Shown here: piece after piece, positions 5,323 to 58,385 of the stretch
Layout: each line of letters begins with the position of its first letter
Position numbering within the stretch: position 1 is the stretch's first letter
From: an uncultured bacterium
Lineage (GTDB): Bacteria; Bacillota_I; Bacilli_A; RFN20; CAG-826
Reading direction: 5' to 3'
Length of the DNA: 64,000 nt
Assembly: GCA_949299335.1 (NCBI GenBank)
Contig: CASGAD010000014.1
Location: forward strand, 66,330 to 130,329
Position numbers and translations under genes: made by a program
Notes under the pieces: generated by a model
What the model was told of the DNA's origin: nothing
What the model saw: only the letters and a program-made list of their open reading frames with translations
Databases searched by the model: none

Positions 5323-5958
5323 ATGAACTACAATAAATATATTGATAACACTCTTTTAAGAGCTGATGCTACATTAGCTGAGATTAAAGGTTTATGTGAA
5401 GAAAGCATTAAGTATGATTTTAAGTCCTGCTGCATTAATCCAGCTTATATAAAGGCAACAAAAGAATTTTTAAAAGGAAGCAATGTCTTAGTTTGCACAG
5501 TCATCGGATTCCCACTTGGTAGCATGACTACTGAAGCAAAAGTTTTTGAAACTAAAGATGCTTTAGAAAAAGGCGCCGATGAAATTGATATGGTCATTAA
5601 TGTTAGTAGATTAAAAGATCATGATGATGATTATGTCTATAACGAAATAAAAGCTATCAAAGAAGTTTGTGGAAAGCATATTTTAAAAGTAATTATCGAA
5701 ACTTGCTTATTAACCGATGAAGAAAAAGTTAGAGTTTGCAAATTAGCTAAAAAAGCAGGTGCTGATTTTGTTAAAACAAGTACTGGCTTCTCAAAATGGG
5801 GAGCAAAAGCAGAAGATGTTAAATTAATGAGAGAAACTGTTGGTCCAGATATGGGTGTTAAGGCTTCTGGTGGAGTCAGAACACACGAAGAAATGATGGA
5901 AATGATCGAAGCTGGAGCAACAAGAATTGGAACAAGTAAAGGTTCCGCATTAATGTAA
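5323..5958 (+). CDS. deoC: Deoxyribose-phosphate aldolase
   Basis: Motifs IDMVIN and FVKTSTGF (Schiff-base Lys) and KASGGVR. Strong SD AGGAGG. Confidence 0.92.
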
Positions 5959-6047
5959 TTATCCAAAAATAAAAAAACTATTGCTTAGCAATATTAATTT
6001 CTGTAAAATTAATAACGTTCGAATTCGAGAATGGAGGTGAAAAAAAG

Positions 6048-6221
6048 ATGTCTAAGGTAGTAATTAGAGAAGGTGAATCTCTCGATGAAGCATTACGTAG
6101 ATTTAAAAGACAAGTCAACAAGGCTGGTACCATTCAAGAATGCAGAAGAAGAGAATGCTTTTTAAAGAAAAATCTTAAGAGAAAATTAAAAAGCGAAAAC
6201 GCTCGTAAAAAATACAGATAG
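6048..6221 (+). CDS. rpsU: 30S ribosomal protein S21 (not in the ORF track, 57 aa)
   Basis: Hand translation gives [66 protein letters not shown] upstream. Confidence 0.9.
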
Positions 6222-6223
6222 TC

Positions 6224-6252
6224 AAAAATCCACTCGATAGGGTGGATTTTTT
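6224..6252 (+). terminator. Rho-independent terminator after rpsU
   Basis: Stem AAAAATCCAC (6224-6233) pairs with GTGGATTTTT (6242-6251), running into a T tract. Confidence 0.75.
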
Positions 6253-6299
6253 TGTTAAAAACTTATTTTTAACCTTGTTGTACTACTAAGGAGGTAAAA

Positions 6300-7490
6300 A
6301 TGAGTTATTTTATTAAACAAATTGGATTGAAAGATTGTTCCTTTGCTTGTGTAAAGATGCTTTTAGCAATGGTATATAAAAATAAAAAGTTTTTATATTA
6401 TCCTCAAATTAAAAAAGATGAATCATATTCGCTTTTAGATATTATAAAAATCGCTAAAAATGAAGGAGTTGAACTAAAAGGATATAAATATGTAACTAAA
6501 GAAAGTTTCTTCGTTCAAAAAAGATTCCCAATTTTAGTGGTACTAAAAGAAAACAATCTTTTGCATATGGTATTAGTTAAGAAAATTAAGTGTAAGAGAG
6601 TTTTAATTTATGATCCTAAAATAGGTATATATGAGTTAAAAAAAGATAAATTCCTAGAATTATGGAATAGTGAGATATTAGAGATCGAATCAATAGGTTC
6701 TTCTAATTATAAGGAGAGTTATTCATCGCCAGTACCTTTAAAAAATAAGATTATATCGTACTTTTTACAAGTTATTAGTCTATTAACTATTTTAGGTGCA
6801 ATGTTTTTCTCGAATGAAACTTATAGTTTTTATATACCATTATTGCTTTTAGTAGCTTTTGCTATTTCTGAATTTGCTTATAAAAGAGTATTAATTAGTT
6901 CTATGAAAGCTTTTGACAATCGTATTATCGAGCGTGTATTTGACGAAAAAAGAAAAGTTTTTAAAGACAAATACATTGAAATGAATAAATTTAAAACATT
7001 ATTACTTGGTAGACCAATTCAATTAATCAACTCGATAATTGTTTTAGTGGTTGGGCTAATTATTTTATCACTAAATAGTTATTTAAATCTTATTAACATT
7101 ACTTTAGTAATATCTTTGAGCATTATTCTAGAAGTTATTCAATATAAATATTTTTTAAATAGGGATGATATTAAAGTAAAGGAAAATGAGTTATTTGAAG
7201 CAGATTCATCGATTGATTACCAAAAGTCTTTAGCATTACTTCAAAATAAAGTTTATAAGCGAGTAACTTTTATTAGTTATAAAAAGTATTTAATTACTTT
7301 TTTAATTGGAGTGATTTGTCTAGTTTATGCCGCCTTTAGTGATGAGATAAGTTTGAATTTTATATTATTTCATGCGTTTATATATTCTTATATAAATGAA
7401 AATGCTACAAACATTTTAAAAATTTACTTTGAAACACCTGATTATAAGTATTCTAAGTGTTTATATAAGTATTATTGTGATGAAATTTAA
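6300..7490 (+). CDS. Peptidase-C39-domain membrane protein (like a bacteriocin-processing ABC exporter but without an ATPase domain)
   Basis: N-terminal 125 aa fit C39: Gln7, Cys13 (KDCSFAC), His89 (LLHMVLV), Asp105 (IYDP). About six hydrophobic helices follow. No Walker A/B or ABC signature. Strong SD AAGGAGG. Confidence 0.65.
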   Translation: MSYFIKQIGLKDCSFACVKMLLAMVYKNKKFLYYPQIKKDESYSLLDIIKIAKNEGVELKGYKYVTKESFFVQKRFPILVVLKENNLLHMVLVKKIKCKRVLIYDPKIGIYELKKDKFLELWNSEILEIESIGSSNYKESYSSPVPLKNKIISYFLQVISLLTILGAMFFSNETYSFYIPLLLLVAFAISEFAYKRVLISSMKAFDNRIIERVFDEKRKVFKDKYIEMNKFKTLLLGRPIQLINSIIVLVVGLIILSLNSYLNLINITLVISLSIILEVIQYKYFLNRDDIKVKENELFEADSSIDYQKSLALLQNKVYKRVTFISYKKYLITFLIGVICLVYAAFSDEISLNFILFHAFIYSYINENATNILKIYFETPDYKYSKCLYKYYCDEI

Positions 7491-7539
7491 GTCATTAAGT
7501 GTAGAATAAATCAAAAATATTCTTTCTAATATTGTTTCA

Positions 7540-7548
7540 TGCTAAAAT
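7540..7548 (+). promoter_or_regulatory. Extended -10 (TGcTAAAAT) placed for a leaderless ybeY transcript
   Basis: TGCTAAAAT ends at 7548 and the ATG is at 7555, the same 7-nt spacing as at 4289/4296. No SD. Confidence 0.4.
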
Positions 7549-7554
7549 AAATGC

Positions 7555-8004
7555 ATGAATTTAGATTTTAATAGCGAAATATCACAAGATGTAAGTGAAT
7601 TCGAACCTTTATATAATAGGTTATTAGAAAAAACATTAGTCATGTTAAATAAGTCAACTAATTGTTTAATGAGCGTTACTTTCGTTAATAAAGAGCAAAT
7701 TCATGAAATCAATAAGATTTATCGAAATATTGATAGGCCTACTGATGTTATAAGTTTTGCTTTTTTGGATGACGAAAACGAGAAAAATATTAAAGGAGAC
7801 TTTCCATTAGATTTAGGTGAAATTTACATTTGTTATGAAGTAGCAGATGAAAACCGTAAATCTTACGGCAATAGTTTAAAAAGAGAATTAGCTTTCCTTT
7901 TCGTCCATGGACTATTACATTTGCTTGGATATGATCATATGACTAAAGAAGACGAAGAGGTCATGTTTCCTCTTCAAGAAAAGATATTAGAAGGAGAACT
8001 TTAA
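7555..8004 (+). CDS. ybeY: rRNA maturation endoribonuclease YbeY
   Basis: Metal-binding motif HGLLHLLGYDH. About 150 aa. Confidence 0.92.
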   Translation: MNLDFNSEISQDVSEFEPLYNRLLEKTLVMLNKSTNCLMSVTFVNKEQIHEINKIYRNIDRPTDVISFAFLDDENEKNIKGDFPLDLGEIYICYEVADENRKSYGNSLKRELAFLFVHGLLHLLGYDHMTKEDEEVMFPLQEKILEGEL

Positions 8005-22343: not shown

Positions 22344-23099
22344 TTTGCTTTTATTCCAACCTGCTGTATTTTCCGTATGATTAATAATTTTAATGATGTT
22401 TGATTTGTGTCTATAAACTAATAAAGCGTAGCCTAAAGTTGCTAATACCGGGAAATAAATGCAAGCATGAGGACCATATTCTGAAAGCATAAGATAGCCA
22501 CTAATCGAATTTCCACATGTAGCGAAGATAATATAGACTATCCAAGTAAATAAAACATAAGAGCCACACATTGTTAATGAAGATAAAGATACATATTTTT
22601 TAATTTTTAATGTGATGAAGAATATTGGCATAAAGAATGGAATTGCTGTCCAACTAGTAGAAAGAGCAAATCCACAATAAGTAGCAACAATTTTTCCACC
22701 TTTAAATTTAAGAAATAAACTATATGAGTGGCCAATCATTCCTCCGAAGGCTACCAAGTAATAAGCTAATTCACTTAAAGTATTTCCTTGTCCTAAAGCA
22801 TTAAATTCTTTATTATCACCTAACATGAATGAATTGATGGATTCGACATAAGTAAATAAAAGGAAGGCTACAATGAATGGAACAATTATTTTAAATATAT
22901 CGAGAGTGATAGTAATAATACCAGCTTTTTTAGAAACAACTCTACCAACATTTGTTCCTCCTGTGTTATGACTTCCTGATTCTCTAGGATCAATGCCATA
23001 AAAAATCTTAGAAATTAGTACTCCATTTGGAATGCTTCCAAATAAGTAACCAACCACAAAGCATAAAACTAGTATTAAAAATCTTAAAAAATAAACCAT
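22338..23099 (-). CDS. plsY: Glycerol-3-phosphate acyltransferase PlsY
   Basis: GSIPNG...SGSHNTGGTNVGR motif, multi-TM. Adjacent to parE/parC as in B. subtilis. Confidence 0.88.
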   Translation of the reverse strand: MVYFLRFLILVLCFVVGYLFGSIPNGVLISKIFYGIDPRESGSHNTGGTNVGRVVSKKAGIITITLDIFKIIVPFIVAFLLFTYVESINSFMLGDNKEFNALGQGNTLSELAYYLVAFGGMIGHSYSLFLKFKGGKIVATYCGFALSTSWTAIPFFMPIFFITLKIKKYVSLSSLTMCGSYVLFTWIVYIIFATCGNSISGYLMLSEYGPHACIYFPVLATLGYALLVYRHKSNIIKIINHTENTAGWNKSKK

Positions 23100-30982: not shown

Positions 30983-31306
30983 ATGTACCCAAGACTCATT
31001 AATCAAATTAAAAAGGCTATTGAAAGTAAAAAAGGTGAAGACATTAAAATTTATAATGTTAAAGACAAAAATCCATTATTTGATTATGTTATCATTTGCA
31101 CAGGCTTAAATGAGAAAAACATGGATGCAATTACTTCAAATATTGAAGACACTTTGGAAGAACAATCATTTGAAGTAAAAAGTATTGAAGGCTTAGGATC
31201 AAGTGATTGGATTCTAGTTGATTGCTATGATGCAATTGTTCATATTATGTCTCAAAGCTATCGTGAGCATGTTAAATTAGATGAATTAATTAAAAATAAT
31301 AAATAA
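30983..31306 (+). CDS. rsfS: Ribosomal silencing factor RsfS
   Basis: 107 aa. DYVIICTG...WILVDCYDAIVHIM pattern. Confidence 0.9.
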   Translation: MYPRLINQIKKAIESKKGEDIKIYNVKDKNPLFDYVIICTGLNEKNMDAITSNIEDTLEEQSFEVKSIEGLGSSDWILVDCYDAIVHIMSQSYREHVKLDELIKNNK

Positions 31307-31313
31307 GAACATA

Positions 31314-31376
31314 AAAAACTCTACAAGTTATATTTATTTAATAAATTAAATAGGTAATTGTAGAGTTTTATTTTTT
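31314..31376. terminator. Bidirectional terminator-like hairpin with a long loop
   Basis: 13-bp stem AAAAACTCTACAA (31314-31326) pairs with TTGTAGAGTTTTA (31358-31370), T run at 31371-31376. The 31-nt loop is unusually long. Confidence 0.5.
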
Positions 31377-31421
31377 AAGGGAATTATTTAGTAAAAAGGT
31401 AATTGAAGTTATTTAAAATTA

Positions 31422-31449
31422 ACTTCGTATAATATCTATTATGTAATTT
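31422..31449. other. dif: dif-like Xer recombination site (chromosome dimer resolution)
   Basis: ACTTCGTATAA-TATCTA-TTATGTAATTT has the 11-6-11 layout. It matches the remembered B. subtilis dif at 23/28 positions. It lies in the convergent strand-switch gap. Confidence 0.65.
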
Positions 31450-31529
31450 TTTTGAAAATTATTACGATATAATCAATAATATATTAATAATTAAATAATT
31501 TATATTCTGTTGATAATAAAATTAATAAT

Positions 31530-31567
31530 TACTAATAAACTACTAGTTATTTACTAATTTGATACTA
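31530..31567 (-). repeat. Phased TAGTA array 4 (period 11 bp), four perfect units, starting at the stop of the 183-aa ORF
   Basis: Plus-strand TACTA at 31530, 31541, 31552 and 31563. The 18-mer ATTACTAATAAACTACTA (31528-31545) is identical to 22304-22321. Confidence 0.75.
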
Positions 31568-32116
31568 ACAAGAATATAATTTTGTATAATTATTTTTAAT
31601 TTCATCATATTTAAAGTTTAAATTAATTATATTAGAAATAAAATCTCTATAACAATTTAAGATCTTTAAAACAGTATTTTTATTTAAAAATGCGCACGGT
31701 CTAGCATCTTTAATTTTGCCATTTTCTAACTTAAATAAGTCTTTGTGAACAATCTGAATGTTTTGAATTTGAGCATAATATTCATTATCTAAAGATAAAG
31801 AATGAATTATACCTAAGTTAATACCATCTTCGCCATCAAAATAGCATTCATACTTAGTTTTAATAGGGCAAATAAGGACACTATTTTCGTATTCTCCACT
31901 ACTTTTAATAACCACCACTTTAATTGATTTTGCTTCTTTTTTATCATAGTAGCAATTATAGATTTCACCGATTAAAAAGGCTTTTTTGTCTCTATTAAAC
32001 AAGTAATTAGTTGTATATGATAAGGTGGTATTTGCCCGTTCTAATTGCCTAGTTAAAGCATTATTTTTGTCAGATTTAACAAAATATATGTTTTTTTCTT
32101 TAATTTGACTATCCAT
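31565..32116 (-). CDS. Hypothetical protein, weak PemK/MazF-like pattern
   Basis: Good SD AAGGAGAG. GEIY...KVVVI...VLICPIKTK...AQIQNIQIVHKDLF resembles the toxin pattern GD[IV]Y..RP.VV..v.v.PiT..dQirtvdk.Rl. The similarity is weak. Confidence 0.5.
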   Translation of the reverse strand: MDSQIKEKNIYFVKSDKNNALTRQLERANTTLSYTTNYLFNRDKKAFLIGEIYNCYYDKKEAKSIKVVVIKSSGEYENSVLICPIKTKYECYFDGEDGINLGIIHSLSLDNEYYAQIQNIQIVHKDLFKLENGKIKDARPCAFLNKNTVLKILNCYRDFISNIINLNFKYDEIKNNYTKLYSC

Positions 32117-32955: not shown

Positions 32956-33930
32956 TTATTTTGCTAATAAACTATTAAAAGAAGTAATTTCTTCAGTTGT
33001 GAAAGTAACATCGTTTGGAACTATACCAAAACCATTTTTACTTCCATCATTCCCTTGTACCCCTTCTAAAACGCTTGAACTAAAGCCAAAATTAGCAGAA
33101 ATGACGGTATCATCGTTATTATAGGTCTCTAATAACTCAGTTTTAACGGCTCCTGGATTTGATAATGCTTGAGAAATTGAAGCGTTTATTGATTCAAGGA
33201 CGTACTTATAAACTTCACTATTTGAAGAAATATCATTTCTTACAAATAAACCTGCTTGAGGAATATAATCTTTGCTCCAAGTGGTCACTTCTTTAATCTT
33301 AGTTTGTAAATTGATATCTAAAATTTTAATACCTTTTTTTGTTAAATTTGATTTAATTGCGGTAGCGGCTGGTTCAGCAACAACAGCATAATCAACTTGA
33401 GTGCCGTCAATTTTATAATCAGCGGTCATTGTGAGTAATTTATCTTTTAAACTACTAATAGAATCTAAATACACATCACATCCACCTGCATCTTTATAAA
33501 CAGTTTTAAATAGTAAATCTGGAGTGTTATTTTCTTGGAATCCATAAACTACATCATCTTGACTAATAGTTAATGAATCAGCATCACTTTCATCTTTATT
33601 AAAAGCAAATAGATGGAAATTGCCCCCAGTAATCATTTTTACAAACGAATATTTTGCTTCATCACCTTGTTTTTCTAATTTCGCAAGTGCTTTAGCACTA
33701 TCAAAAATAATAAATGGATAATCACCTTTACTTAATTGAGCTGGAATATTGCTTGAATCTGCTAAAACATCTACTTTTCCTTCTTCAATTAACTTATAAG
33801 TGCCTAATGTTGGTGCTCCACTAGGCATTAATAAATATTTGTCATAATCATCAGTTGTTTCTTTACTACATGATGATGCTAATAAAGCAATACATAAAAA
33901 ACTGCTTAATTTTAATAAATTAAATTTCAT
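32956..33930 (-). CDS. ABC transporter substrate-binding lipoprotein
   Basis: Signal peptide with lipobox LLASSC. About 300-aa periplasmic-binding-like domain. Adjacent to the permease. Confidence 0.65.
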   Translation of the reverse strand: MKFNLLKLSSFLCIALLASSCSKETTDDYDKYLLMPSGAPTLGTYKLIEEGKVDVLADSSNIPAQLSKGDYPFIIFDSAKALAKLEKQGDEAKYSFVKMITGGNFHLFAFNKDESDADSLTISQDDVVYGFQENNTPDLLFKTVYKDAGGCDVYLDSISSLKDKLLTMTADYKIDGTQVDYAVVAEPAATAIKSNLTKKGIKILDINLQTKIKEVTTWSKDYIPQAGLFVRNDISSNSEVYKYVLESINASISQALSNPGAVKTELLETYNNDDTVISANFGFSSSVLEGVQGNDGSKNGFGIVPNDVTFTTEEITSFNSLLAK

Positions 33931-55402: not shown

Positions 55403-55506
55403 ATTTGCCCTCCTAAACTTATTAATTACTCGCTTTTAAGGTATTCTCATTCAAGAATTTAAGGACCTTTTCAATGCGGTTGTAACAAATATAGGTTACA
55501 ACGCAT
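55403..55506 (-). promoter_or_regulatory. Structured 5' leader of the rplU-prp-rpmA operon (position fits the Firmicutes L21 leader)
   Basis: 12-bp stem with one bulge (55474-55486 pairs with 55495-55506), right after the predicted transcription start. Confidence 0.4.
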
Positions 55507-55509
55507 GTG

Positions 55510-55538
55510 ATAATATCATATTTACAAATGATAGTCAA
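55510..55538 (-). promoter_or_regulatory. Sigma-A promoter of the rplU operon
   Basis: On the minus strand: TTGACT (55538-55533), 17-nt spacer, TGaTATTAT extended -10 (hexamer 55515-55510). Confidence 0.55.
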
Positions 55539-55559
55539 ACGGTTAAATAAATTTTTACG

Positions 55560-55742
55560 TTATTTCCATTGAAATTTATATCCGCCTGGTAATTGGACTG
55601 TCCCATCACTAGATGAATATAATTTATAGACGACAACTGTAATAATCGCTATTACTAAAACAGACATAACTGCCGCTAAAGTAATAGCTTCACCACATTT
55701 AATACTTGAAAGTTCATCACTCATTAATGGTAATTTATACAT
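55560..55742 (-). CDS. Small hydrophobic peptide (60 aa) with a double-glycine-type leader-like N-terminus
   Basis: Strong SD AAAGGAGGA 5 nt before the ATG. Sequence: MYKLPLMSDELSSIKCG|EAITLAAVMSVLVIAIITVVVYKLYSSSDGTVQLPGGYKFQWK. Confidence 0.6.
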   Translation of the reverse strand: MYKLPLMSDELSSIKCGEAITLAAVMSVLVIAIITVVVYKLYSSSDGTVQLPGGYKFQWK

Positions 55743-55796
55743 ATTTTCCTCCTTTCATGAGTACAACATAGATAAATTACCAATTTTTTCATTTAA

Positions 55797-58385
55797 CTAA
55801 ATGTTTTTTAATTTTTCTAAAATTTGGTTAAGTTTACTCTTATAGTTTTCGTATTTTTCTTTTTCAAGATCAATTTTAACTTTTGGAGCTTTTTCAACGA
55901 AGTTTGGATTATTCAATAAACCCTCACTTCTTTTAATTTCAAATTGAACTTGAGCCAAATCCTTCTCTAATCTAGCTTTCATCTCATTTTTATTAATTAA
56001 GTCTTTAACAAACAATGTTAAGTTATCAAGAATAATACTGGTAACACCTTTAATGTTTTCTTTAGTAGTAACTAAAGATTTAGCAAAGCTAAATCTAGCA
56101 ATATAAGGATAAATATCTTCTACATCTAAATTTGTTTTAATATAAAGTTCTAATGGTGCGTTTGGAGCTAATTCATTTTTAACCTTATATTCTCTTAATT
56201 TTTCAATTGCAGCTTTTAATATATCTCCCTTTTTAAGTGAATCTTCAAAGATATATTCATTTTCAAAATCAGGATAAGATTCAAGCATGATAGACTCTTT
56301 ATGATCTGGTAAAGCTAAATAAATCTCTTCTGCAATAAATGGCGAGAATGGATAAATCATCATAATTATTGCTTTTAAAGCTTTAATTAATACAAAATAA
56401 GTTCCTTCTTTATATGCTTTTTCATCTTTTAAAGTAACTTTTGTCATTTCTAGATAAAATGAACAGAAATCATCATAAACAAAATTATATAAATTTGTAC
56501 TAGCAACACCATATTCATATGAATCCATGGCTTTAGTTACATTCTTAATAGTATCTTCTAATCTAGTGAGAATGTATTTATCAATTGTTTCAAGTTTATT
56601 TAAATTTATTTCACCTTGAGAATAGTTTTCAGGCAAATTCATAAGAATATATCGGGCACTGTTCCAAATTTTATTTAAATAATTATTAGCGGATTTAACT
56701 TTTTCTTCGCTATAACGCATATCTAAGCCTGGAGATGCAGTTGTTGCTAAGAAATATCTTAAGCTATCGACACCATAATTATTAATTACATCTATTGGAT
56801 CAATACCATTTCCTAATGATTTTGACATTTTTCTTACTTGAGAATCTCTTACAATTCCATGAATTATGACATTCTTAAATGGAACATTCTTTGTAAAATA
56901 TAGTCCTTGGAAAACCATTCTTGCTACCCAGAAGAAGATAATATCGTATCCAGTGACCATACAATCTAAAGGATAATAACGTTTAAAATCATCTGTATTA
57001 TCTGGCCAACCTAATGTTTCAAAAGGCCATAAAGCGCTTGAGAACCAAGTATCTAAAACATCTTCATCTTGGGTCCGATTTTCCATATCAGTAGGTTTTT
57101 GGGCAGAAACTAGTATTTCATTAGTAGTTTTATGGTAATAAACAGGAATCCTATGACCCCACCATAGTTGTCTTGAGACACACCAGTCATCACATTTTTC
57201 CATCCATTGCTCTAAAACTTTTTCAAATCTTTCTGGGAAAAATTTAATTTTATCTTTTGAAGCTTGTTGATCTAAGACAAGTTGAGCAAGAGGTTTCATT
57301 TTTACAAACCATTGTAATGAAAGAATAGGTTCTACTACAGCATCACTTCTTTCGCTGTGTCCAACTTGGTGTTTAATGTTTTCAATCTTAATCAAATTGC
57401 CTTCTTCTTTAATAGTCTTCACTAATAAATCTCTACAAGCAAATCTATCCATACCAGCGTATTTACCACAATTTTCTTTCATAGTGCCATCAACATTCAT
57501 AATAATTGGATGTGGTAAATTGTATTTTTGACCAATAATCCAGTCATTAGGATCATGAGCTGGGGTACATTTCATTGCGCCAGTACCAAATTGAATATCA
57601 ACATATTCATCTGCAATAACAGGAATTTCCTCATGGTTAGCTGGATTTATAACTTTTTTGCCAACTACATCTTTATATCTTTCATCATTCGGATTAACAA
57701 CAATGCAAGTATCACCAAACATTGTTTCAGGTCTAGTTGTAGCAATTGTTAAAAACTTTGAAGGATTATCTACAAAAGGGTATTTAAAGTAGAAAAATTG
57801 GCCTTCATCTTCTTTATATATAACTTCAATATTACTTAAAGCAGTTTTCATGACTGGATCATAGTTAACAATTTTTTGTCCTCTATAAATAAGTCCTTTA
57901 TTATATAAAGTAACAAAAACTTTGTTAACAGCTTTTGAACAACCAGCATCCAAGGTGAATCTTTCACGAGTATAATCGACCATTATGCCCATTTTCGCCC
58001 ATTGTTCATGAATTTTAGAAGTATATTCTTCTTTCCATTCATAAGCACGTTTCATGAATTCTTCTCTACCTATGATAAATCTTGAAGTTCCTTCACTAGC
58101 AAGTTTAGCATCTACTTTTGCTTGAGTAGCAATTCCAGCATGGTCAACACCTGGTAAAAATAATACATCAAAGCCTTTAGCTTTTTTATATCTACAAGTA
58201 ATATCTTGAATAGTGTTATCGATTGAGTGACCTATATGAAGCTTACCTGTAACGTTTGGTGGAGGAATAACCATAGAAAATTTTTGCTTTGATTTGTCTC
58301 CAGCTGTAAAATAACCAGCTTTCTTCCAAATTTCGTATCTTCCAGCTTCCACTTCTTTAAAATCGTATTTTTTGTCAAGTGCCAT
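55797..58385 (-). CDS. valS: Valine--tRNA ligase
   Basis: HIGH (LHIGH) and KMSKS motifs, C-terminal coiled coil. 862 aa. Confidence 0.95.
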   Translation of the reverse strand: MALDKKYDFKEVEAGRYEIWKKAGYFTAGDKSKQKFSMVIPPPNVTGKLHIGHSIDNTIQDITCRYKKAKGFDVLFLPGVDHAGIATQAKVDAKLASEGTSRFIIGREEFMKRAYEWKEEYTSKIHEQWAKMGIMVDYTRERFTLDAGCSKAVNKVFVTLYNKGLIYRGQKIVNYDPVMKTALSNIEVIYKEDEGQFFYFKYPFVDNPSKFLTIATTRPETMFGDTCIVVNPNDERYKDVVGKKVINPANHEEIPVIADEYVDIQFGTGAMKCTPAHDPNDWIIGQKYNLPHPIIMNVDGTMKENCGKYAGMDRFACRDLLVKTIKEEGNLIKIENIKHQVGHSERSDAVVEPILSLQWFVKMKPLAQLVLDQQASKDKIKFFPERFEKVLEQWMEKCDDWCVSRQLWWGHRIPVYYHKTTNEILVSAQKPTDMENRTQDEDVLDTWFSSALWPFETLGWPDNTDDFKRYYPLDCMVTGYDIIFFWVARMVFQGLYFTKNVPFKNVIIHGIVRDSQVRKMSKSLGNGIDPIDVINNYGVDSLRYFLATTASPGLDMRYSEEKVKSANNYLNKIWNSARYILMNLPENYSQGEINLNKLETIDKYILTRLEDTIKNVTKAMDSYEYGVASTNLYNFVYDDFCSFYLEMTKVTLKDEKAYKEGTYFVLIKALKAIIMMIYPFSPFIAEEIYLALPDHKESIMLESYPDFENEYIFEDSLKKGDILKAAIEKLREYKVKNELAPNAPLELYIKTNLDVEDIYPYIARFSFAKSLVTTKENIKGVTSIILDNLTLFVKDLINKNEMKARLEKDLAQVQFEIKRSEGLLNNPNFVEKAPKVKIDLEKEKYENYKSKLNQILEKLKNI

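Follow-up and report, generated by a model that had tools for sequence, protein, structure and literature searches.

The peptide gene between valS and rplU

The window, by which we mean the whole 64-kb stretch of DNA that was analyzed, has a G+C content of 28%, and we take its gene order around tig-lon-engB-valS...rplU to be that of Bacillus with many genes deleted. The gene under study is an ORF on the minus strand (55560..55742; ATG at 55742..55740 and stop codon at 55562..55560) that encodes a peptide of 60 residues, MYKLPLMSDELSSIKCGEAITLAAVMSVLVIAIITVVVYKLYSSSDGTVQLPGGYKFQWK. A Shine-Dalgarno sequence, GGAGG (55748..55752, minus strand), could be read from the sequence 5 nt ahead of the ATG. 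The first-pass annotation had described a 60-residue ORF with a very good Shine-Dalgarno sequence, located between valS and the rplU promoter, and both statements agree with the coordinates. The valS gene (55797..58385, minus strand; an ORF of 862 residues) ends 54 nt upstream of the peptide gene. The 54-nt gap contains no good promoter-like site and no terminator-like site; therefore, the peptide gene and valS are probably co-transcribed. Downstream of the peptide gene, a strong promoter-like site of rplU (55510..55538, minus strand; TTGACT-17-TATTAT with TG) and a match to the L21 leader upstream of rplU (55419..55491, minus strand) are followed by the genes rplU-prp-rpmA-obg-ruvA-ruvB. The L21 leader match scored 33.9 bits against an Rfam gathering score of 36, and, given its position, it is probably genuine despite the sub-threshold score. 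The promoter-like site and the L21 leader together form the downstream boundary, at the place where relatives carry radC.

The peptide includes 3 regions: (i) an N-terminal leader of the double-glycine (GG) type, which has a Cys at position −2 (residues 1–17, MYKLPLMSDELSSIKCG; 55692..55742, minus strand); (ii) a uniformly hydrophobic segment (residues ~19–41, AITLAAVMSVLVIAIITVVVYKL; 55620..55688, minus strand), which, judged from the AF2 model and from conservation, is a putative transmembrane helix; and (iii) a C-terminal tail (residues 42–60; 55563..55619, minus strand), which contains the conserved motif LPGGYKFQWK and was modeled by AF2 as a hairpin.

We compared 92 peptide loci, namely 11 looked-up loci, 80 metagenome loci, and the window. 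The usual gene order is tig-lon-engB-valS-peptide-radC-...-rplU-prp-rpmA-obg-ruvAB, and one clade has the order valS-cvpA-peptide-radC-ruvAB; wherever the flank is long enough, valS almost always precedes the peptide gene. Each locus contains one copy of the peptide gene (9 looked-up members and 80 metagenome loci). The start of radC is located −25 to +74 nt from the end of the peptide ORF in 76 of the 92 loci. The window and 10 related metagenome loci do not have radC at the locus, and rplU follows after 160–200 nt; a search throughout the 64-kb window also found no radC. Comparison of the interval 55403..55559 with the corresponding loci (L001–L015 and L041–L114) indicates that the clade of the window lost radC from the valS–rplU interval. 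In L013, which encodes a distant family member, 3 genes on the opposite strand (5513..7869, minus strand) are located between valS and the peptide gene, and one of them has a weak match to the type IV pilin N-methylation motif PF07963.

The C39 profile had no match within ~10 kb of the peptide gene in the 92 loci, and no PCAT, immunity, or two-component genes were present in the called-gene tables of the looked-up loci. The sole ABC exporters in the looked-up flanks were 2 genes without C39, ~3 kb downstream in L015. An accessory locus with immunity, transporter, and sensor genes, which is a criterion for class II bacteriocins and pheromones, was not found. Taken together, the gene orders indicate that the peptide gene is single-copy, vertically inherited, and fixed in a valS-(radC)-rplU housekeeping cluster. 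Because the gene is single-copy and located in a housekeeping locus, with no transporter or immunity genes nearby, the peptide does not behave like a bacteriocin or a pheromone. The resemblance to class II bacteriocins and pheromones that the first-pass annotation had proposed was thus not borne out by the genomic context.

The peptide family, its leader, and its mature part

A first homologue search revealed 28 clusters with identities of 56–97% and lengths of 58–66 residues, except for one 41-residue fragment. An exhaustive profile search yielded 82 family representatives at the 50% clustering level, a profile search of a large database yielded 228 homologue clusters, and a scan of metagenome contigs yielded 96 peptide loci, 80 of which were retained. 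The family members are 57–75 residues long, and none of them has a Pfam domain or a name beyond “hypothetical protein”. Their sources are annotated as “Candidatus Onthovivens sp.”, “Bacilli bacterium”, “Tenericutes bacterium ADurb.Bin024”, “Firmicutes bacterium CAG:345”, and “uncultured Mollicutes bacterium”, which we take to correspond to the GTDB order RFN20 and its neighbours; one member, in Firmicutes CAG:345, is present on more than 1000 contigs. Searches of Pfam and NCBIfam with the window peptide and 54 family members revealed nothing above threshold. The window peptide itself had no NCBIfam match and hit only DUF6476, with 15 bits against a cut-off of 24, and several members had sub-threshold matches to the GG-leader bacteriocin models TIGR01847, Bacteriocin_IIc, and lant_SP_1948. 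We found no description of this peptide family in the literature searched or in curated family libraries.

Six close sequence pairs differ by synonymous changes only (pS 0.094, pN 0). In distant pairs, the synonymous sites are saturated (pS ~0.54), and a family-wide dN/dS is uninformative. The spread of homologues and the pattern of substitution indicate that the peptide ORF is a real, conserved gene. By sequence, the peptide belongs to a new, unnamed family of small membrane proteins with a double-glycine-type leader, found in uncultured, low-GC, mycoplasma-related gut Bacilli.

The leader consensus of C39 peptidases is Leu−12-X3-Glu−8-Leu−7, and the residues at −4, −7, and −12 pack knobs-into-holes in a hydrophobic groove (PMC6363468). 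Positions −4, −7, −12, and −15 are recognized, and the GG is required for the narrow active-site entrance (PMC7018657); the known C39 domains need small residues at −2 for the same narrow entrance (PMC6363468, PMC7018657). We aligned 216 unique homologues on the end of the transmembrane segment and derived position statistics from this alignment. Position −12 is Leu in 141 of 216 homologues and hydrophobic in 85% (Leu6 in the window peptide); position −8 is Glu in 149 of 216 and acidic in 77% (Glu10); position −7 is Leu or Met in 153 of 216 and hydrophobic in 79% (Leu11); and position −4 is Ile, Val, or Leu in 119 of 216 and Thr in 20, with 68% hydrophobic overall (Ile14). Position −3 is mostly Lys or Arg, position −1 is Gly in 176 of 216 with a few Ala (Gly17), position +1 is Glu in 156 of 216, and position −15 is hydrophobic in a weak 38% of the family. 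The window peptide and the family thus carry the hydrophobic residues at −4, −7, and −12 that are expected of a GG leader, and the window peptide also has the acidic residue at −8 and a residue of the Gly/Ala/Ser class at −1. The expected Gly at −2 is replaced by Cys16 in the window peptide, and the expected C39-containing transporter in the same locus was absent from the 92 loci.

Position −2 is variable throughout the family (Gly 49, Cys 41, Val 37, Pro 35, Lys 12, Thr 8), and Ser and Ala also occur there. The canonical GG is present in about a quarter of the members (Gly at −2 in ~23%), which include the textbook-like leaders MTLLTNAEMANIKGG followed by EAITL, MIKLTNEEMSVLKGG followed by EAISL, and MRELSVIEMSNIVGG followed by EAITV. 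The clade of the window has Cys-Gly at −2/−1, and elsewhere the pair is Val-Gly, Pro-Gly, Lys-Gly, Ser-Gly, or Gly-Asn. The alignment therefore indicates that the deviation at −2 is a family-wide relaxation and not a peculiarity of this genome. The register that the first-pass annotation had assigned (Leu6 at −12, Glu10 at −8, Leu11 at −7, Ile14 at −4, Cys16 at −2, and Gly17 at −1) is correct. Its reading of these residues as a double-glycine-type leader also held when the conservation of the motif was checked, as it had suggested: the homologues keep Leu−12, Glu−8, Leu/Met−7, Ile/Val−4, and Gly−1, with the canonical GG in that quarter of them, and the loss of the motif, which would have spoken against a leader, was not seen.

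A scan of the window ORFs of 25–130 residues (ATG, GTG, or TTG starts) with a relaxed leader motif matched 3 ORF loci. The other two (22607..22735, minus strand, and 33272..33391, plus strand) are nested within larger ORFs; among the three, the peptide ORF is the one for which homologues were sought, and they were found. On the basis of the motif scan, the conservation among the 216 homologues, and the exclusively synonymous changes in the 6 close pairs, the leader match goes beyond chance. The mean net charge is −1.45 for the leader together with Glu+1 and +2.6 for the tail, and in 98% of members the tail carries the more positive charge.

Three other kinds of N-terminal signal were considered and rejected. 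A bacterial lipoprotein signal does not fit since Cys16 precedes the hydrophobic segment and is replaced by Gly, Val, Pro, or Lys in other clades. A type IV or Flp prepilin leader does not fit since the leader is acidic, the Glu is at +1 rather than +5, and position +5 is Leu or Met. A Sec signal peptide is ruled out by the order of the motifs and by the charge.

Residues 18–60 comprise one uniformly hydrophobic helix, a Tyr-Lys/Arg-Leu-Phe segment, and a tail that ends with LPGG[YFW]KF[EQT]W. Pro35, Gly36, Gly37, Phe40, and Trp42 of the mature peptide are nearly invariant in the 216 homologues, and the transmembrane segment is the best-conserved part of the family. The AF2 model, which was computed from 29 sequences (pLDDT 84), has one helix at residues 8–43, with a pLDDT of 93–94 in the transmembrane block, and a β-hairpin in the tail with strands at residues 48–50 and 56–58. 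The mature part is thus predicted to be a single transmembrane helix followed by a conserved hairpin. Positions 42–58 of the peptide profile, in the tail, also matched 4–7 times each in several large proteins of 657–3249 residues (P0106, P0108, and P0113–P0121); the repeats of these proteins, for example HFTSSDGQAVLPANYAFTAAD, are probably β-hairpin repeats with a coincidental similarity.

An ATPase-less PCAT homologue encoded in the same lineage

The gene at 6300..7490 (plus strand) encodes a 396-residue protein whose residues 3–130 match Pfam Peptidase_C39 with 65.5 bits. A profile search showed it to be the only Peptidase_C39 match in the window, 48 kb from the peptide gene, as had been noted in the first-pass annotation. 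Among 15 aligned homologues, His89 and Asp105 never vary, and Gln7 and Cys13 hardly do; an N-terminal C39 domain with the catalytic Cys and His and the accompanying Gln and Asp, as expected of a PCAT, is therefore present. A Pfam search with the remaining 266 residues revealed no match, including none to ABC_membrane. The profile of the C39 protein family matched PCAT1 (4RY2) with an E-value of 1.2e-11, and also 4S0F and 8VP3 (~1e-11), and the profile alignment between query residues 5–301 and PCAT1 residues 16–349 extends from the peptidase into the membrane domain. The AF2 model of the C39 protein (pLDDT 83.7, pTM 0.73) gave thirteen PCAT1 structures as the best Foldseek matches in the PDB (E-values 3e-13 to 3e-8, TMq 0.51–0.61); next came HlyB, TAP, McjD, and MsbA, which match the membrane part, and LahT and ComA, which match the peptidase. 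Profile alignment and AF2/Foldseek comparison thus both point to the six-helix membrane domain of a type I ABC exporter.

The chain stops after helix 6, at residue 396, with no C-terminal nucleotide-binding domain, a point that the first-pass annotation had missed, and all 24 homologous C39 loci encode proteins of ~380–410 residues. A pair of Walker A and ABC signature motifs was not found in any window ORF of at least 150 residues. Since the nucleotide-binding domain is a defining feature of PCATs, the C39 protein is not itself a PCAT. Judged from the sequence profiles and the model, it is a PCAT homologue without the ATPase, which consists of a PCAT1-like peptidase and a six-helix membrane domain. 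The C39 protein resembles PCAT1 of Clostridium thermocellum (4RY2, 6V9Z) in the peptidase, the six-helix domain, and the Gln/Cys/His/Asp site; in contrast to PCAT1, it does not continue beyond the sixth transmembrane helix into a nucleotide-binding domain. We found no description of ATPase-less PCATs in the curated libraries or in the literature searched.

A genome scan with the C39 pattern yielded 19 C39 loci. The gene order rpmF-deoC-rpsU-C39-ybeY-cdd-era-recO-glyS is shared by 17 of 23 loci, among which the identity of the C39 protein falls as low as 27%, and the rpsU-C39-ybeY context occurs in at least 17 further loci, 15 of which are GTDB genomes. In the lowest-GC group, there is a second context, tilS-C39-ileS; the gene that follows the C39 gene is accordingly ybeY in the window and ybeY or ileS among the homologues. 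A C-terminal motif of the C39 protein, YxxSKCLYKYYC, is conserved as well. These gene orders indicate that the C39 gene is a syntenic core gene of the same low-GC lineage as the peptide gene. A search for small ORFs with a GG leader next to the C39 gene in 23 loci gave only implausible out-of-frame matches. Two further features of these loci were observed. In L007 (7214..8062), ybeY and cdd are fused into a gene for a 282-residue product with YbeY and cytidine-deaminase domains. Four loci with the C39 gene in rpsU–ybeY synteny and a G+C content of 23–35% (L027, L029, L032, and L030) are labelled Lachnospiraceae or Staphylococcaceae bacterium and are probably from mislabelled MAGs.

The peptide and the C39 protein could be linked through their occurrence in the same genome. 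The metagenome contig OJML01000015.1 (113,055 nt) carries a peptide gene at ~78.7 kb on the reverse strand, and UQXJ01000001.1 (NODE_15_length_113055) of the MAG UMGS732 carries at 30.4–31.6 kb a C39 gene whose product has 45% identity to that of the window. From the same length and node number, we infer that the 2 accessions are the same contig; UMGS732 would then resemble the window in having the two genes on opposite strands, separated by ~47 kb. The same-genome co-occurrence of the peptide and C39 genes would thus be seen in 2 species. In addition, the longest contig is 170,809 nt for the closest homologues of both proteins (P0001 and P0029). These observations make the C39 protein of the window a plausible candidate for the processing enzyme of the peptide. 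Between the C39 gene and the peptide gene, the gene orientation flips from plus to minus at ~31300..31600 and the cumulative GC skew peaks at 30–32 kb, so that this region looks like a replication terminus.

Proposed leader processing, its alternatives, and implications

In the explanation that we favor, to which we give an even chance, the 60-residue peptide is the precursor of a small membrane protein, from which the ATPase-less C39 protein cuts off a PCAT-type leader. The precursor would probably represent a single-pass core membrane component of this uncultured, genome-reduced Bacilli clade rather than an antibiotic. Residues 1–17 would form the PCAT-type leader, an amphipathic helix that presents Leu−12, Leu−7, and Ile−4 and ends with x-Gly. 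The only C39 protein visible in the genome would bind this helix in the hydrophobic groove of its cytoplasmic C39 domain, and the peptide bond after Gly17 would then be cut. The 43-residue product (EAITL...KFQWK, 4660.5 Da average) would stay in the membrane as a helix with an aromatic hairpin tail. The cargo being a membrane helix and not a soluble secreted peptide, ATP-driven export would be unneeded, and this would explain the loss of the ATPase domain. In this scheme, both the cleavage and the assignment of the protease are inferred, as are the topology and function of the mature peptide.

Several findings support leader processing: the leader signature is family-wide, in register with Gly−1, and agrees with the rules published for recognition; about a quarter of the members have the canonical GG, and several have sub-threshold matches to GG-leader bacteriocin models; in 98% of members, an acidic leader is joined to a cationic cargo, which is also the case in GG-leader precursors; the C39 protein is PCAT1-like with intact catalytic residues, with no candidate substrate gene adjoining its own gene in 24 loci; both genes are syntenic core genes of one lineage and would share a contig in UMGS732; and MAM of Faecalibacterium and EbfG of Synechococcus, discussed below, are precedents for GG-leader proteins that are not antibiotics. 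Other findings count against it: the window peptide has Cys at −2, and just ~23% of the family has Gly there, with Val, Pro, and Lys common, in contrast to the needs of the known C39 domains; the 92 loci have no C39 gene within 10 kb of the peptide gene; the charges would place the uncleaved protein in an N-out/C-in orientation, so that after insertion the leader would be located beyond the reach of a cytoplasmic C39 domain; and AF2 draws the leader and the transmembrane segment as one continuous helix.

These same findings suit the main alternative explanation, in our view a real possibility though a doubtful one, in which the peptide is an uncleaved bitopic membrane protein that keeps its 17-residue acidic amphipathic tail, the likeness to a GG leader being a convergence or a relic of an ancestral peptide with such a leader. 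The protein would probably adopt the N-out/C-in orientation, with YidC as its insertase, as for the Pf3 coat protein, and the positive-inside rule, applied to the charges of leader (−1.45) and tail (+2.6), favors this orientation in the 98% of members with the more positive tail. It would readily accommodate the continuous helix at residues 8–43, the lack of a protease gene linked to the peptide gene, and a position −2 that is unconstrained (Gly, Cys, Val, Pro, Lys, Thr, Ser, or Ala) and includes residues that a canonical C39 domain should reject (PMC7018657). The leader also evolves faster than the mature part (pN 0.45 versus 0.26), a comparison that, coming from pooled near-saturated pairs, is indicative only. 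What an uncleaved protein hardly explains is why Leu−12, Glu−8, Leu/Met−7, Ile/Val−4, and Gly−1 are conserved in the exact C39 register, and why the lineage keeps an orphan C39 protein whose catalytic triad is intact although no other substrate is visible.

We consider it unlikely that the peptide is a secreted class II bacteriocin or pheromone that is cleaved and exported by a full-length PCAT elsewhere in the genome. The GG-type leader, the cationic, hydrophobic 43-residue mature peptide, and the weak matches of some members to bacteriocin-leader models would be in keeping with such a role, and, the visible genome being 64 kb, a full PCAT could be encoded elsewhere. Against this role stand the gene itself, which is single-copy, vertically inherited, and embedded in a housekeeping cluster throughout a deep clade, the absence of C39 within 10 kb at the 92 loci, and the lack of immunity, histidine-kinase, and regulator genes in the looked-up flanks. 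The core of the peptide is a uniformly hydrophobic span of 23 residues and not an amphipathic helix, and the mature sequence is strongly conserved (the 28 closest homologues are 58–97% identical), whereas bacteriocins and pheromones usually diversify. Very improbable, in our judgment, is cleavage by another enzyme such as RadC, a JAB/MPN-domain protein that most relatives encode in translational coupling with the peptide. Peptidases of the JAMM type cut after the Gly-Gly of ubiquitin-like proteins, and radC lies at its close spacing from the peptide ORF in the 76 loci mentioned above, which come from all clades but that of the window. The clade of the window has no radC at the locus, and none is present in the 64 kb, yet the peptide gene is intact and under purifying selection; moreover, the leader signature is of the C39 type and not a β-grasp fold, and the whole region is syntenic, so that adjacency alone is weak evidence of a functional link.

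Processing by the C39 protein, the favored reading, would place the peptide near known GG-leader systems while setting it apart from each of them. As in the GG leaders of ComC/ComA, class II bacteriocins, LahA/LahT, and CtA/PCAT1, positions −4, −7, and −12 are hydrophobic, with Glu at −8 and Gly at −1, and the peptide family shares with GG-leader precursors the acidic leader, the cationic cargo, and, in a quarter of its members, a true GG. Unlike in these systems, position −2 is not bound to Gly, the transporter is not adjoining, and the cargo is a full transmembrane helix; in addition, GG-leader loci are accessory and variable, whereas the peptide gene belongs to the core, with one copy in a housekeeping cluster. 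With its small size, acidic N-tail, single hydrophobic span, and basic C-tail, the peptide resembles the Pf3 coat protein. The latter is a small N-out single-span protein with a similar distribution of charges and no conserved C39-type leader pattern. The peptide differs from it in having a C39-type leader, and no sequence similarity between the two was detected. MAM of Faecalibacterium is a non-antibiotic GG-leader protein of the envelope (PMC12184118), and EbfG1-4 of Synechococcus, with PteB, are non-antibiotic GG-leader proteins that act in biofilm (PMC4997328). The peptide would be like MAM and EbfG, functionally its nearest counterparts, in carrying a GG-type leader on a protein that serves the physiology or structure of its producer and is not a killing agent. 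MAM, however, is a soluble or assembling protein of 135 residues encoded next to a full PCAT, and the EbfG proteins are secreted, whereas here the product would be a 43-residue membrane span and its candidate processing protein has no ATPase. The relaxed P2 position, the transmembrane cargo, the trans-encoded ATPase-less part of a PCAT, and the core synteny of both genes would set this case apart from the known systems.

We tentatively suggest, as a possibility that we rate well below an even chance, that a bacteriocin-export module has been domesticated for the housekeeping biogenesis of a membrane protein: the ATPase-less PCAT would have become an ATP-independent, dedicated leader peptidase, and perhaps a lateral-release insertase, that serves a single, universally conserved membrane peptide of 43 residues throughout an order-level clade of genome-reduced, Mollicutes-related gut Bacilli and whose P2 specificity has relaxed from Gly to Cys, Val, Pro, or Lys.

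If the pairing of the 2 proteins is wrong, the peptide still represents a well-defined new family of conserved small membrane proteins. If it is true, the double-glycine/C39 system would not be confined to antibiotics and pheromones and could become a core, vertically inherited pathway for a membrane protein. The peptidase and membrane part of a PCAT would have been retained for a long time without the ATPase, and the ATP need of recognition, cleavage, and hand-over would become testable. Tolerance of bulky or imino residues at P2 would also make such a C39 domain a possible tool for leader removal. The analysis gives a hypothesis and a name to a family of small proteins of very common uncultured gut bacteria.
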